Below, in pieces: positions 27,139 through 34,131 of a stretch of 64,000 bases of DNA. Made by a program: the position numbers and the translations under genes. A model generated the notes under the pieces. The model saw nothing but the letters and a program-made list of their open reading frames with translations, did no database searches and was not told the origin of the DNA. Position 1 is the stretch's first letter. The number at the start of each line of letters is the position of its first letter. Source of the stretch: a bacterium (lineage in GTDB: Bacteria > Hinthialibacterota > Hinthialibacteria > Hinthialibacterales > Hinthialibacteraceae); the NCBI GenBank assembly GCA_963662285.2, contig CAXXMV010000002.1, forward strand, positions 1,376,001 through 1,440,000, written 5' to 3'.

Positions 27139-27741
27139 ATGATGAAATCGACTAAAGTAGCAAGTAATGAAGAAAGCACATCTGTGAATGAAAAAATCAA
27201 AGAAGATGGTTCCGTTCAAAATGATGAATCCATTACGAAAATTAAACCAAGTGAACTGCTAGATGATGCCCGTGAGATTGTTAAGAAAAATACTTATTGG
27301 GCGATGGGCGTAGGATTGGTTCCAATGCCAGTTATTGATATATTAGGAGTTGGCGCATTTCAGGCAAAAGCCTTGAAAGAATTATCTGACCTATACGGTA
27401 TAACATTTTTCGAACACAAAGTGAAAAATATTATTGCGGTTTTGGTTAGTGGTTTGAGCACTCCGGTTTTGGCCGCAGCTTTGTTTGGAACAATGGTAAA
27501 ATTTATTCCCGGATTGGGGACTCTGATGGGAATCGCCGCCACTCCGGCCATCGCGGGCGCCGTGACTTTCGCAACGGGACAAGTATTCATCCAGCATTTC
27601 GAATCAGGTGGAACTTTTCTTGATTTCGATCCGCAAAAAGTGAAGGATTATTTCAACGAGCAGATCAAAATAGGGATTGAATTGGCCAAAGAAAAAGAAG
27701 AGGCGCCAGCAACAGCAGAGGTTGCCAACGCCGAAAATTAG
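27139..27741 (+). CDS. DUF697 (YcjF-like) domain protein, paralog 1
   Basis: W.MG.GL.P.P..D......Q...L..L..LY...F; T.A.G.VFIQHFESGGT.LDFD; RBS AAGGAG before ATG 27139. Confidence 0.8.
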   Translation: MMKSTKVASNEESTSVNEKIKEDGSVQNDESITKIKPSELLDDAREIVKKNTYWAMGVGLVPMPVIDILGVGAFQAKALKELSDLYGITFFEHKVKNIIAVLVSGLSTPVLAAALFGTMVKFIPGLGTLMGIAATPAIAGAVTFATGQVFIQHFESGGTFLDFDPQKVKDYFNEQIKIGIELAKEKEEAPATAEVANAEN

Positions 27742-27777
27742 GATGCAATTTTACTTGATTGCGCCAATTCTATTGTT

Positions 27778-27936
27778 ATGACTGCATTCTTGATATACAT
27801 AAGTTTATCTTTCTTGATCGGGAAGATCGGTGAAAACCGTCGCCTTGGTTTTTGGGGGTATCTTTTTGCCTCATTAATATTCACGCCGCTTGGAGGATTA
27901 TTGTTGTTATTTCCTTCAGAACCAAATGATTCTTAA
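27778..27936 (+). CDS. Small membrane protein (52 aa) absent from the ORF track
   Basis: Hand translation: MTAFLIYISLSFLIGKIGENRRLGFWGYLFASLIFTPLGGLLLLFPSEPNDS; two hydrophobic segments around a G-E-N-R-R-L-G-F-W-G loop; sits in the operon gap. Confidence 0.7.
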   Translation: MTAFLIYISLSFLIGKIGENRRLGFWGYLFASLIFTPLGGLLLLFPSEPNDS

Positions 27937-27948
27937 TTTTGATATTAA

Positions 27949-27987
27949 CCATCCATCACAGAGAATTTGATTTTCTGTGATGGATGG
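27949..27987. promoter_or_regulatory. Strong intercistronic hairpin before the ABC exporter
   Basis: CCATCCATCACAGAGAA-TTTGA-TTTTCTGTGATGGATGG; no long U tract follows. Confidence 0.55.
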
Positions 27988-28006
27988 CTGTTAATTACAA
28001 CATACC

Positions 28007-30762: not shown

Positions 30763-32178
30763 ATGAAACGCGTCTCTTTTTGTAAATTAATATCAATTTG
30801 GATGTTTCTTCTTGTCATAATCTGGCCGGTTAATGCTTCTGCAGAGGAGAAAACAGAAATTCTGCGATTGAATATTTTTGAACGATATTATAAATATATG
30901 ATGCCGCATTTTCAGGATTTTATTGATATCACCAATAAGAAATACGGTATAATTCTAGATGTAACTACTGTAATAACAACCGATTCTGATAGTTTATACT
31001 ATGCAACAAAAAATAAAGACATAGATATTATCGTTCTCTCCATGAATAATTTAAGAAGCGAGAATTATCCTTACATCGCCAATAAATTAGTGATCCCTAT
31101 AGATATAGAAAAAATCCCCAATTATCAAAATATTAATCCATTGTTTCAGGAAAAACCACAAATTATGGATGAAGGTTACCATTACGGCCTTCCTATTTTT
31201 GCGGGTTTACATTCTCTGGCATATAATGCAGATATTGTCAATGAAGAGCCAGACAGCTGGTCAGTGCTTTGGGATAAAGACAACGCTAAAAAATATTCCA
31301 TTTGCTCTAACTATCCAGAAGGTAATATTTTCATAACCGCACTGGCATTAGGGTCAAAAGCGCAAGATCTAAGCGATTATAATTCTTTAATCCACCAGAT
31401 ACCATTAAATACATTGAGAACCAAACTCAATCAGCTTACATCGAATGTATATTCATATTATCCGGTTTATCCTTCGCTGGGTGAAATGAAACACCTCTCT
31501 TATACAACTACATGGGGACTCAGGGTTCTAGAAGCGCAGAAGCAAGGAATGAACTGGAAAACAGTGTATCCCAAAGAAGGGTGCAAGGGATGGCTGGATA
31601 TTCTCGCCATCACATCCGCAGTCACCCCGAACAGCAGGAAATATGATATCTGTCTTGATTTTTTCAACTATTTCCTGAGGAATGAGTTACAGGTAAAATG
31701 CACCGAAAACGGGGATCTTATTCCAGTTACGTATAATGCAACAACACACGACAGCAGCCAATATAGTTTTAGTGAAGATTATTTCGTATCAGCATTCCAT
31801 AGTGAGGAGATTGAAACGGATACCATGCGGCTTATTGATGCGCTATGGAAATATGCCATGACTCAGAAATCTACGAGTATTATTTTCAAAGATAAATATG
31901 AAGATAGTGAGATTATGGGTACTGAAGGAGATGATAATGATCTGGATTTTATCCATGCAGGTTCTTATTATAAACGCGGAAAAAAGATTGCCGAAGAACG
32001 ACGCCGGATAAGGTCTCAAAAAGCAAGCGCATTGCCAATAACGCTTCCTATTGACTTGAAATTACTACTGGTTGAACACTCCATCAAGACGGGATATACC
32101 AAACAGGAAATCATTATCAAAGCCCTTGAAGAATACATGGCCAAATATGCGCTGGTCAAACAAGCGCCTGCCAAATAA
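30763..32178 (+). CDS. PotD-like extracellular solute-binding protein with a C-terminal ribbon-helix-helix-like extension
   Basis: Signal peptide; ID.EKIPNY.NI.P, YGLP...G...LAYN, PDSW..LWD, PKEG..GW.D; tail ALPITLPIDLKLLLVEHSIKTGYTKQEIIIKALEEYM. Confidence 0.75.
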   Translation: MKRVSFCKLISIWMFLLVIIWPVNASAEEKTEILRLNIFERYYKYMMPHFQDFIDITNKKYGIILDVTTVITTDSDSLYYATKNKDIDIIVLSMNNLRSENYPYIANKLVIPIDIEKIPNYQNINPLFQEKPQIMDEGYHYGLPIFAGLHSLAYNADIVNEEPDSWSVLWDKDNAKKYSICSNYPEGNIFITALALGSKAQDLSDYNSLIHQIPLNTLRTKLNQLTSNVYSYYPVYPSLGEMKHLSYTTTWGLRVLEAQKQGMNWKTVYPKEGCKGWLDILAITSAVTPNSRKYDICLDFFNYFLRNELQVKCTENGDLIPVTYNATTHDSSQYSFSEDYFVSAFHSEEIETDTMRLIDALWKYAMTQKSTSIIFKDKYEDSEIMGTEGDDNDLDFIHAGSYYKRGKKIAEERRRIRSQKASALPITLPIDLKLLLVEHSIKTGYTKQEIIIKALEEYMAKYALVKQAPAK

Positions 32179-32193
32179 GCGGATTTGATAATG

Positions 32194-32838
32194 TTACTCA
32201 GGAATTGTTTTTCTGATGATTTTGATGTTCTGTTCAATTGAATCTGAAGCTACATAGCAGGAATAAGCGTCTGAAACAGGCAATGCATTCAGAAACCACT
32301 TTTTTTCTTCCAATAGGGCGGTGGTTTCATCCACCCAGGTCAGACTGGCGAGCGGCGCTGACATGCCGCGTCCATCGGCTTTGATAACACTCTCTTTTTT
32401 TGTCCAGTATTCAAAAAAGGTATTGCATGAATCAGTACTATTTTGAATATTGCTCCACTCATCTTTAGACATGAATGATTGAAAATCTTCATATTCAATC
32501 GGCCTGATTTGTTCTATATCAATTCCCAGGCTATTAGTATTACTGATTGCGCAAACCACCTGATTGCCTGAATGCGAAATGTTAAAATCTATTTCATCAT
32601 TCAAATAGGGACGTCCATAGGATGTTCGTTGGATATTGAAAAAATCCTGTTGACTTAATCCTATTTCCAGGAATCCCTGCAAGAGAAGATGTTGACCATA
32701 TAGGCCCGCATAGCGGTCTTTCCAGAAATGATATCGCAGTATTTTATCCTGAGTTTCGATAGGTAAGCATCGAAGAGAGTCATGCCATATATGATCTGGT
32801 ATATGATCCGGGAATGAACTATAGAAAACCGTAATCAT
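32194..32838 (-). CDS. Sfp-type 4'-phosphopantetheinyl transferase
   Basis: YGRPYL, FNISHSG, GIDIE, WTKKES.IKADG.G. Confidence 0.92.
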   Translation of the reverse strand: MITVFYSSFPDHIPDHIWHDSLRCLPIETQDKILRYHFWKDRYAGLYGQHLLLQGFLEIGLSQQDFFNIQRTSYGRPYLNDEIDFNISHSGNQVVCAISNTNSLGIDIEQIRPIEYEDFQSFMSKDEWSNIQNSTDSCNTFFEYWTKKESVIKADGRGMSAPLASLTWVDETTALLEEKKWFLNALPVSDAYSCYVASDSIEQNIKIIRKTIPE

Positions 32839-32843
32839 GATTT

Positions 32844-33497
32844 CTAATCTTTATCATGAGTCTTTTTAATTTTAGCGGAAATCAGCAATCCCTCTTCAAA
32901 CAAAGTTTTATAATGCTTGCGGACTTTGAAAGTATTGAAATCCAGGAAAGTTCCACCAGAGTCGAAATGTTGGATAAAAACTTTCCCTGTGGCGAATGTA
33001 AATGCAGCGGAAGTGAAGGGAAGGGCGGTTAAATAAGTCAATGCGCCAATTACCGGGACAAAAATAAAAGCCATCCTGACCAGTAAAATTGAAAGATAAA
33101 GAGGTCCGACCCCGCTCATTAAAGATGCGATAATTATTTTAGCTTTTTGATTAGAAAACGGGACATCATAGAGTTCAGCCAGTTGTTTTAGCGTGCTGGC
33201 TTGAAATCCAGCCATGCCGACAATATCCAGCAAGGGAATGGGGATTACTCCAATACCCATCGACCACAGCATGTTTTTCTTTACAATATTCAGGGCTTGC
33301 GTCTCACGTTTTGCAAAATCGATCTTTTCGCCAGCCTCAACAGGCGCTATATCCTCATCTTTGGCGGCATCTTTGGTAATATCTTTGGCATTATCTTTTA
33401 CTAATTGATCATCGGTTTCAACTGATGGGGTAAGAATGGCATTGGCGTCTTCCTCATCTGCGATTTGACAAAAGTTTTTCAAGTTACTTCGAGCCAT
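32844..33497 (-). CDS. DUF697 (YcjF-like) domain protein, paralog 2
   Basis: IVKKN.LWSMG.G.IP.P..D......Q...[32 protein letters not shown]; start overlaps the parA stop. Confidence 0.8.
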
Positions 33498-34131
33498 ATA
33501 TCACCTCCTCAATTAGATTACCTACTATTTTGATTTCTTCATAGGCAATTGATGCGGGATAAGCGTGACCTATCCAATCTCCTAAGCCGAAACAATCGAC
33601 AAAAGCGCTGCGCTGCCCCACGCCGGGGCTGATGGGTTCATTAAAGCCTTGCAATGCATCAGAAATTTCTTTACCAAATGAGGTCCTTCGATCTACCCGG
33701 CTGGGAACCAATAAGCACTGCGGTTGTCCATTGCGGATAGCGCGAGTTTTTTGCATCAATGCAATGGCTTTGGAAGTGGCGACGAAATCCGCTCCGGATG
33801 GCGTGACTGGAATAAGGAACAAATCACAGATGATCAAAGACGCTTCAGTGGCTTCATTGGTATGGGGTGGGAGGTCAATGATCAAGAGATCGGCAGTAAG
33901 ATTTTTGGCGTAGCGTATGAATTGCTCTGCATCACTTTGATTCTCAACCGGAAAAGTTTGTAAATGAATGGGGAGTTTACCACTTTTACACCAATCGGTC
34001 GCAGTTTTTTGTTCGTCCAAATCCAATAGAATAACCGACTTACCCCGTGAGGCCAATTCGCAAGCAATATTCACAGCGATTGTGGTTTTCCCGACACCGC
34101 CTTTTTTATTGCCAACGGCTATGCATTTCAT
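33484..34131 (-). CDS. Short ParA/MinD-family ATPase (ParF/McdA size class, no N-terminal HTH)
   Basis: Deviant Walker [28 protein letters not shown]; about 215 aa. Confidence 0.9.

Follow-up and report, generated by a model that had tools for sequence, protein, structure and literature searches.

Why does a gene cluster for polyketide synthases (PKS) and nonribosomal peptide synthetases (NRPS) carry at its edge a set of membrane-protein genes together with a gene for a ParA-type ATPase? The question is raised by a stretch of 64,000 nucleotides (the window) from a bacterium of the phylum Hinthialibacterota (GenBank assembly GCA_963662285.2, contig CAXXMV010000002.1, positions 1,376,001 to 1,440,000). 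Its 7.29 Mb genome is denoted G000, and the other G labels stand for relatives from a collection of the phylum. One operon of the window encodes a DUF697 membrane protein (DUF697a), a 52-aa microprotein (mp52), a SyrD/PvdE-type ATP-binding cassette (ABC) exporter, a prohibitin-like SPFH protein and a solute-binding-protein homologue. The other encodes ParA, a second DUF697 protein (DUF697b) and a 4'-phosphopantetheinyl transferase (PPTase). The original prediction, made from the letters of the sequence, described these genes as a membrane scaffold and positioning system for the PKS/NRPS megasynthase. The genes that it named all exist, with agreement between the open reading frames (ORFs) and the Pfam and NCBIfam families, and the two operons do converge, meeting at 32178/32194. 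The gene set was found to be an accessory cassette of NRPS/PKS clusters that is conserved, widely spread and centred on the exporter.

Recurrence beside NRPS and PKS genes

G000 contains a single NRPS/PKS region, and DUF697a, DUF697b, mp52, SPFH, PPTase, the lipoprotein, the binding protein and this type of ParA are each present in one copy beside it. DUF697a and DUF697b are paralogues (36% identity, E 2e-44) and the sole DUF697 matches in the genome; the PPTase is the sole copy detected with the window PPTase as query. The collection holds 35 genomes of the phylum. DUF697 relatives are found in eight of them, which all belong to a single order and mostly have two copies located on the same contig, and searches with the window proteins gave no match outside the window's own order at E<=1e-5 or at E<=1e-10 (60 and 34 other genomes, respectively). 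In all six relatives with usable context (G002, G004, G012, G013, G020 and G021), the genes directly flank a PKS-NRPS cluster; for G012 this emerged on a second look, which revealed a giant PKS ORF ending about 700 bp from the lipoprotein gene. Two sub-modules recur in these relatives, variously ordered and oriented with respect to the synthetase genes. The first is ParA-DUF697b, in some cases followed by the PPTase, and the second is a lipoprotein gene divergent from DUF697a-microprotein-exporter-SPFH, in some cases followed by the binding protein.

The condensation-domain matches of G002 (12/12), G004 (6/6) and G020 (7/7) all lie inside a single cluster. When the phylum was divided into 11 genomes with at least three such matches and 24 with two or fewer, the SPFH subfamily was present in 10, DUF697 in eight and ParA in seven of the former and in none of the latter, counts that are descriptive, with no statistical test, since the genomes are kin. 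Two genomes are positive for SPFH and negative for DUF697, and their assemblies consist of 990 and 830 contigs. In G012, a single DUF697 gene is present and ParA is absent, and G007 has NRPS genes and no cassette. The number of SPFH genes also varies, with one in the window and two each in G004 and G020; in G004, exporter-SPFH pairs stand at both ends of the cluster.

The cassette is also found in Alphaproteobacteria. A plasmid collection gave 19 matching records, of which six were inspected. In four named alphaproteobacterial records, the core (DUF697, a microprotein with two transmembrane (TM) segments, a SyrD/PvdE-type exporter and a prohibitin-like SPFH protein) lies beside NRPS/PKS genes. 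According to its annotation, plasmid pSM-2 of Skermanella mucosa reads NRPS-NRPS-MbtH-prohibitin-cyclic peptide exporter-hydrolase-hypothetical-DUF697. Replicon p2 of Azospirillum brasilense Sp7 carries NRPS-TauD-ABC-exporter-hydrolase-DUF697-65 aa-prohibitin, and Rhodobacteraceae SC52 has a PKS, a PPTase-fusion protein, two small ORFs, the exporter, prohibitin and DUF697. On pTM3 of Tistrella mobilis, the order is DUF697-70 aa-exporter-SPFH, and next comes, in the opposite orientation, a gene for a type II thioesterase. Exporter and SPFH genes overlap by 4 nt in Skermanella and SC52 (annotations) and in Tistrella (ORF coordinates derived here). None of the six named plasmid and chromid loci of Alphaproteobacteria that were scanned contains ParA.

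The Tistrella cassette is located 5-9 kb upstream of a two-module NRPS gene, which is followed by C-A-KR-T, and the whole cluster has 2 KS and about 11 A domains. We take the did cluster to be located on pTM3. The cluster seen here is probably that of didemnin, whose published architecture it fits. As published, the didemnin cluster comprises 11 NRPS and 2 PKS modules, of which the first two make the acyl-glutamine part of the prodrug, and the products exit the cell as acylated prodrugs (PMC10811503). The same work places 'eight transporters and eight hypothetical proteins' in the cluster flanks; the terms SPFH, DUF697 and microprotein have no occurrence in the main text of the didemnin papers (PMC10811503).

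A scan of metagenome contigs with a profile of the DUF697 subfamily returned at least 574 relatives, from which the best 80 by similarity to the query were kept. These 80 loci form 69 clusters at 85% identity, and the 27 clusters of at least 8 kb were used as long de-duplicated loci. The genes of each locus were called at fixed bit-score thresholds, which give no match elsewhere in the 7.29 Mb of G000. Among the best 80 of at least 574, the microprotein was present at 44 loci (18 of the 27 long ones), SPFH at 26 (19/27), the exporter at 16 (12/27), a PPTase homologue at 15 (6/27) and a ParA-like protein at 14 (3/27). Two or more DUF697 genes were counted at 20 of the 80, and NRPS or PKS genes at 17 of the 80 and 14 of the 27. 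A single-protein scan of genome contigs gave two loci only, including a metagenome-assembled genome (MAG) of Rhodopila in which a trans-AT PKS beta-branching cassette is followed by microprotein-SPFH-MACPF/hemopexin-DUF697. The MACPF/hemopexin protein between SPFH and DUF697 of this MAG (L004 8096-9942) is encoded by two ORFs or by one with a frameshift.

The gene content, its recurrence and its linkage to NRPS/PKS clusters are thus matters of observation. Since the set recurs with biosynthetic gene clusters (in relatives, in other phyla and in metagenomes), the functional link to NRPS/PKS clusters that the original prediction proposed is well supported. Against its second part, a putative mechanism of scaffolding and positioning, stand several results discussed below.

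The proteins of the cassette

The exporter scores above the curated cut-off of TIGR01194 (SyrD, PvdE, YojI; 286.2 bits) over residues 26-538. Its gene stops at 29641 and that of SPFH starts at 29642, a 0-nt gap, as had been read from the sequence. Among proteins of solved structure, those closest to the SPFH protein are prohibitin-2 and prohibitin-1 (E 5e-16, over query residues 48-274). Hydropathy revealed a single TM segment (33-51) after 11 lysine or arginine residues in the first 32, so the protein combines a membrane anchor with an SPFH domain and a coiled coil, the last two within the prohibitin-2 alignment. Because this single segment follows a K/R-rich N-terminus (positive-inside rule), and because prohibitin and HflK/C are oriented likewise, the protein is predicted to be N-in with its bulk in the periplasm. 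The lipoprotein, the binding protein and the beta-lactamase-fold protein have signal-like N-termini. Taken together with the predicted placement of SPFH, this suggests that most soluble domains of the set face the periplasm; the cytoplasmic parts would be ParA, the PPTase, the ATPase domains of the exporter and the N-termini of the DUF697 proteins.

DUF697 proteins are helical, with a core of about 150 residues and an invariant HF..GGT.L motif in the orthologue alignment; the alignment of orthologue N-termini agrees with the start of DUF697a at 27139. The AF2 model of DUF697a has five helices at moderate confidence (pLDDT 66), and a Foldseek search against the PDB gave no match at E<=0.001. 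The microprotein forms a two-helix hairpin and is encoded directly downstream of DUF697 in the relatives. It has no Pfam family. Its profile matches 937 representative clusters at E<=0.001, nearly all of them 50-160 aa long, and none of the top 150 matches is a fusion with DUF697. The hairpin at 27949-27987, which separates mp52 from the exporter gene, may act in processing or attenuation and thereby give DUF697a-mp52 and exporter-SPFH different levels.

The lipoprotein hyp395 has an invariant lipobox (G19-C20 in six orthologues) and adjoins DUF697a in G004, G020, G021, G012 and the locus L056. No Pfam or NCBIfam model matches it. Its AF2 model is confident only in a helical hairpin (203-322); Foldseek found no match to the model in the PDB at E<=0.001, and an Atlas search returned unnamed clusters only. 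Orthologues of the binding protein come after SPFH in G002 and G004, and the C-terminal extension, which is K/R-rich, is conserved in these two to about residue 459. The ribbon-helix-helix label that the original prediction attached to this protein was not retained, as a Pfam search of the last 92 residues, relaxed to E 10, gave no such domain. No cassette protein gave a match to NfeD. PADLOC anti-phage models gave generic ATPase matches for the ABC and ParA proteins only, and none for DUF697, mp52, SPFH, the binding protein or hyp395. A terminator scan was modestly above shuffled sequences (13 found, mean 7.2, sd 2.7), and a promoter scan was not above them (35 found against a mean of 28.1).

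The features of the locus are listed in the table. The PKS-NRPS cluster runs past the window to a KS...ACP gene and the second exporter. We take the aminotransferase module to follow the logic of beta-amino-fatty-acid lipopeptides, and the product class is predicted on that basis. The AsnB and beta-lactamase-fold/fn3 pair is likewise found next to the last NRPS gene of G004 and G020 and may serve periplasmic maturation or cyclisation.

Table. Features of the locus in G000; positions refer to the window unless another source is named (aa, amino acids; TMD, transmembrane domain; NBD, nucleotide-binding domain).
Feature	Position	Strand	Remarks
PQQ-like beta-propeller protein, 1276 aa	21734-25564		malectin domain; one flank of the cluster
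Lipoprotein hyp395 (395 aa, family-less)	25654..26841	-	divergent to DUF697a; lineage-specific cassette member
DUF697a, membrane protein	27139..27741	+	PF05128 34.8 bits, cut-off 27.7; frame open from 27043
mp52, 52-aa two-helix microprotein	27778..27936	+	motif G.NR..GFWGY
18-bp perfect hairpin	27949..27987	+	between mp52 stop and exporter start; no T-run after it
SyrD/PvdE-type cyclic-peptide ABC exporter	28007..29641	+	fused TMD-NBD; TIGR01194 322.3 bits; ABC_tran 110 bits
Prohibitin-like SPFH protein	29642..30709	+	PF01145 87.2 bits, gathering score 23.6; one N-terminal TM segment, residues 33-51
Solute-binding-protein homologue	30763..32178	+	SBP_bac_6 and SBP_bac_8; signal-like N-terminus; C-terminal extension of ~90 aa
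Sfp-type PPTase	32194..32838	-	ACPS 51.4 bits and AASDHPPT_N 46.4 bits
DUF697b, paralogue of DUF697a	32844..33497	-	PF05128 31.5 bits, cut-off 27.7; conserved N-terminal motif
Small ParF-like ParA ATPase, deviant Walker motif (11 protein letters not shown)	33484..34131	-	AAA_31, ParA, CbiA, MipZ
AsnB homologue	34257-36128	+	tailoring gene of the cluster
Beta-lactamase-fold/fn3 protein	36136-37755	-	tailoring gene; signal-like N-terminus
Hybrid PKS-NRPS genes	37733..64000	-	KS-AT-DH-ER-KR-ACP; KS-AT-ACP-aminotransferase-C-A-T...; C-A-T
Second SyrD-type exporter	G000:C2:1443779-1445407 (L142 3779-5407)		just outside the window; 45% identical to the first; far cluster end
PQQ-like beta-propeller protein	L142 5526-7055		outside the window; other flank of the cluster

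ParA and its DUF697 neighbour

ParA is a protein of about 210 aa, and its closest solved relative is ParF (4dzz, E 1e-17). It has the deviant Walker A motif KGGxGK[ST] with its signature lysine, of which G11-G14, K15 and T17 are invariant in eight orthologues. It stays below the equivalog cut-off of NF041546, the ParA family partition ATPase (150.1 against 180 bits), and a secondary match to the BcsQ-like model TIGR03371 (E 3e-16) is also below cut-off. In all seven pairs, the gene downstream of parA is DUF697b and not the DNA-binding partner of a ParABS system. Stop and start overlap in each of the seven, as given by the derived ORF coordinates; the overlap in the window, noted in the original prediction, measures 14 nt, with GAGGAGG just 5' of it.

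The N-terminus of DUF697b carries the motif M-x-[RK]-S-x-L-x-x-F, followed by a variable linker, and M1, S4, L6 and F9 are invariant in nine sequences. Among the 120 DUF697 genes examined, only these nine have the motif and all nine directly follow a close ParA, while none of the 78 assessable genes without ParA has it. The coupling of ParA and motif is therefore strict; all nine sequences are probably from one lineage. Eight more DUF697 genes follow a different, longer class of ParA and have K/R-rich N-termini. In the plasmid collection, 92 records contain relatives of the ParA at E<=1e-15, and the closest of them (49% identity), on small plasmids of Roseomonas, are followed by a 68-aa ORF and not by DUF697, which is the classical type Ib layout.

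In G017, what looks like a fusion of ParA and DUF697 (L015, G017:C515, 420-427 aa) was rejected as an assembly gap, since the joint reads XXXX (N stretch). A search for longer fused forms of DUF697b returned two EcsC-DUF697 proteins only, and such a blank is weak evidence. ParA-DUF697b(-PPTase) is a lineage-restricted extension of the cassette, with ParA as a minority add-on.

Function of the cassette and relation to known systems

The reading that we favour, at somewhat short of an even chance, is that of an accessory module built around the exporter and not the synthetase, in which an SPFH cage would confine the exported amphiphilic product and ParA would place the module. It is proposed because of what is known of the prohibitin and HflK/C family, together with the translational coupling and the predicted topology. 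The SPFH protein, often translationally coupled to the exporter, would oligomerise to a ring or cage on the periplasmic side of the inner membrane, like those that prohibitin and HflK/C form around their client proteases. Such a cage would enclose the exporter with DUF697 and microprotein subunits. The result would be a confined membrane patch, from which an amphiphilic (lipidated) product or prodrug could be exported without spreading through the membrane of the producer, perhaps to be passed to periplasmic partners at the patch. In the lineage of the window, the second operon would add to this a ParF-like ATPase, a second DUF697 paralogue and the PPTase of the cluster. Here the N-terminal peptide of DUF697b would replace the usual partner of ParG/ParB type, and ParA would bind the peptide and govern the placement or assembly of the membrane module. 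A bolder and rather improbable generalisation is that SPFH-caged export compartments serve toxic amphiphilic products, and that some lineages place them by a plasmid-derived ParA that reads the N-terminal peptide of a DUF697 protein instead of a DNA-bound ParB or ParG.

Several points weigh against the export module or against parts of it. The best 80 of at least 574 metagenome loci were ranked by similarity to the query and are therefore not a random sample, and 13 of the 27 long loci among them have no NRPS/PKS gene in the flank. Profile counts overstate independence, since the phylum relatives are kin. Two orthologous chromid loci of Azospirillum consist of DUF697-microprotein-SBP-ABC-SPFH-ABC-reductase (SBP, solute-binding protein) and have no NRPS/PKS gene within 20 kb on either side, so that a megasynthase product need not be the substrate. 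In G020, the exporter adjoins ParA and two SPFH genes follow mp52, which means that exporter-SPFH adjacency is not constant. The topology of SPFH is deduced from a hydropathy scan and the positive-inside rule only, and the role given to DUF697 is a guess because its fold has no solved relative. The resolution of a quick maximum-likelihood tree (114 DUF697 cores) was insufficient to tell types a and b apart or to count how often ParA was recruited.

The same caution applies to the complex of ParA and DUF697b, for which the original prediction had proposed modelling. A ParA dimer with ATP and residues 1-75 of DUF697b scored 0.53, 0.39 and 0.56 (median 0.53) against 0.00 for the best control, with a partner pLDDT of 40-46 and a contact agreement of at least 41%, and was graded as 'weak support'. 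To pass, a pair must score at least 0.32 and exceed each control by at least 0.20; 58 of 80 solved complexes and 2 of 110 mismatched pairs did so, a calibration that is only approximate here because custom alignments and a riding ligand were used. Scores of 0.60 or less were given to just seven of the 80 solved complexes and to both passing mismatches; a prediction in this band is more often wrong than right unless the pairing is likely beforehand. Likeness to solved ParF-partner complexes (e.g., 5u1g) may also contribute to the score.

A serious rival, although an unlikely one, is that DUF697, the microprotein and SPFH stabilise the membrane of the producer against stress, in the manner of the phage shock protein (Psp) system or flotillin, with no exporter complex. 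The predicted product, a beta-amino-fatty-acid lipopeptide, would suit this role; its class is presumed, and the order KS-AT-ACP-aminotransferase-C-A-T is observed. The cassette can also stand without NRPS/PKS genes. Reportedly, ycjF of E. coli (DUF697) is paired with the NTPase gene ycjX under sigma-32 control and is often found by psp operons (PMC3041696), and Band-7 proteins recur in PSP neighbourhoods (PMC11237479). However, the exporter belongs to the conserved unit at 12 of the 27 long loci, and its coupling to SPFH (0 nt here, 4-nt overlaps in three distant carriers) argues for stoichiometric co-assembly. Furthermore, genes for PspA, PspC or other stress regulators were not seen in the loci examined.

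The mechanism of the original prediction, in which SPFH, DUF697 and ParA anchor the cytoplasmic megasynthase by the exporter and ParA spreads the complexes along the cell, must be considered improbable. The recurrence with NRPS/PKS clusters would be expected from it. So would the PPTase, which acts on carrier domains, is co-transcribed with ParA-DUF697b and has a homologue at 15 of the 80 metagenome loci; the N-terminus of DUF697b and ParA would also share the cytoplasm with the megasynthase, and the weakly supported complex is compatible with this arrangement. However, the predicted periplasmic bulk of SPFH would lie away from a cytoplasmic megasynthase, and the Azospirillum chromid cassettes have no NRPS/PKS gene within 20 kb on either side. 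ParA, moreover, is scarce: it stands beside only 17 of the 120 DUF697 genes examined and at 3 of the 27 long metagenome loci, and it is absent from the six alphaproteobacterial loci and from G012. No docking element came to light on the synthetases either, for which no search aimed at one was made.

That ParA is a leftover partition gene of a plasmid or island, with no role in the cluster and only a historical proximity to DUF697b, is very unlikely. Its nearest plasmid relatives are indeed partition-type ParAs on the small plasmids mentioned above, and its best NCBIfam model is that of a partition ATPase. Nevertheless, the protein is kept at 59-64% identity in seven genomes of three families, its gene always overlaps that of DUF697b at the start/stop, and no small ParG/ParB-like ORF ever comes after it. 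The DUF697b motif occurs only beside ParA, a different class of ParA has the same position in other cassettes, and the parA-bearing contigs measure 1.8 Mb (G000) and 2.6 Mb (G021). Chance juxtaposition of unrelated membrane genes with the cluster, for which only the commonness of the individual families speaks, is counted as refuted by the recurrence across phyla with conserved sub-orders and by subfamilies that have no copies elsewhere in G000.

The export module resembles known systems in part. With HflK/C-FtsH and prohibitin-m-AAA it shares an SPFH protein that has an N-terminal anchor, resembles prohibitin-1/-2 in its SPFH and coiled-coil regions, and is encoded together with a polytopic membrane ATPase to which it is translationally coupled. 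Unlike in these systems, the putative client of the putative cage is an ABC exporter and not a protease, the window has one SPFH gene and not a hetero-pair, and DUF697 and the microprotein are constant extra partners. SPFH-NfeD operons (YbbK/QmcA-YbbJ, FloT-YuaF) also join an SPFH gene tightly to small membrane-protein partners, whereas the partners here are DUF697 and a 52-aa hairpin, with NfeD not detected. Type Ib partition, exemplified by ParF-ParG of TP228, shares with the present ParA its size, its deviant Walker A motif, ParF as closest relative in the PDB, the overlapping downstream partner gene and a conserved N-terminal peptide with a basic residue. The partner here is, in contrast, a DUF697 membrane protein and not a small DNA-binding protein, and the context is chromosomal, inside a biosynthetic gene cluster, where no centromere was noticed, although no search aimed at one was made. 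ParA/MinD ATPases that position or assemble cargo include McdA-McdB, PpfA, ParC and BcsQ (cellulose synthase complex). Like them, the ParA of the window is an orphan ParA-type ATPase encoded with its putative non-DNA cargo; the cargo would differ in being an SPFH-exporter membrane module, and ParA is dispensable for most cassettes.

YcjX-YcjF of E. coli likewise pairs a DUF697 membrane protein with a P-loop NTPase gene (PMC3041696), but YcjX is of a different NTPase family, the pair belongs to a heat-shock and psp context, and its DUF697 protein is of another subfamily. With the PvdE/SyrD exporters of acylated precursors and the export of didemnin prodrugs, the cassette shares an exporter that passes the TIGR01194 cut-off and a position at the flank of a didemnin-like cluster. 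Chromid locus L139 of Azospirillum has, just upstream of DUF697 (16290-19721), a gene for a 1143-aa protein with an IcmF-related N-terminal domain, and adhesin and type I secretion genes further upstream.

The original prediction had stated that no such system was described, which is largely right for the literature searched. A full-text search gave nothing relevant on DUF697 by title or abstract, and nothing that ties SPFH or band 7 to nonribosomal peptide gene clusters. The kasumigamide paper names a cyclic peptide transporter and a hypothetical protein of 341 aa, with no SPFH or prohibitin wording. One anecdotal mention qualifies the statement: beside a Thalassobaculum NRPS/PKS cluster, a cyclic-peptide exporter followed by a prohibitin gene was noted and an interaction was speculated upon (PMC12016528).

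Few of the widespread SPFH proteins have an identified membrane client, and the cassette, which is present in culturable Azospirillum, Skermanella and Tistrella, offers a tractable pair of client and scaffold. DUF697 and the 52-aa microprotein family with its 937 representative clusters, so far without an assigned function, gain a context. Clusters with the cassette probably make products that require special export or containment, and the cassette can serve natural-product work as their marker; where such a cluster is transferred to a heterologous host, it may be a part that is lacking. With the ParA-DUF697b pair, the cargoes known for ParA ATPases would come to include one embedded in the membrane; if the proposed placement is true, this would be a ParA system whose cargo is the integral-membrane secretion module of a biosynthetic gene cluster.

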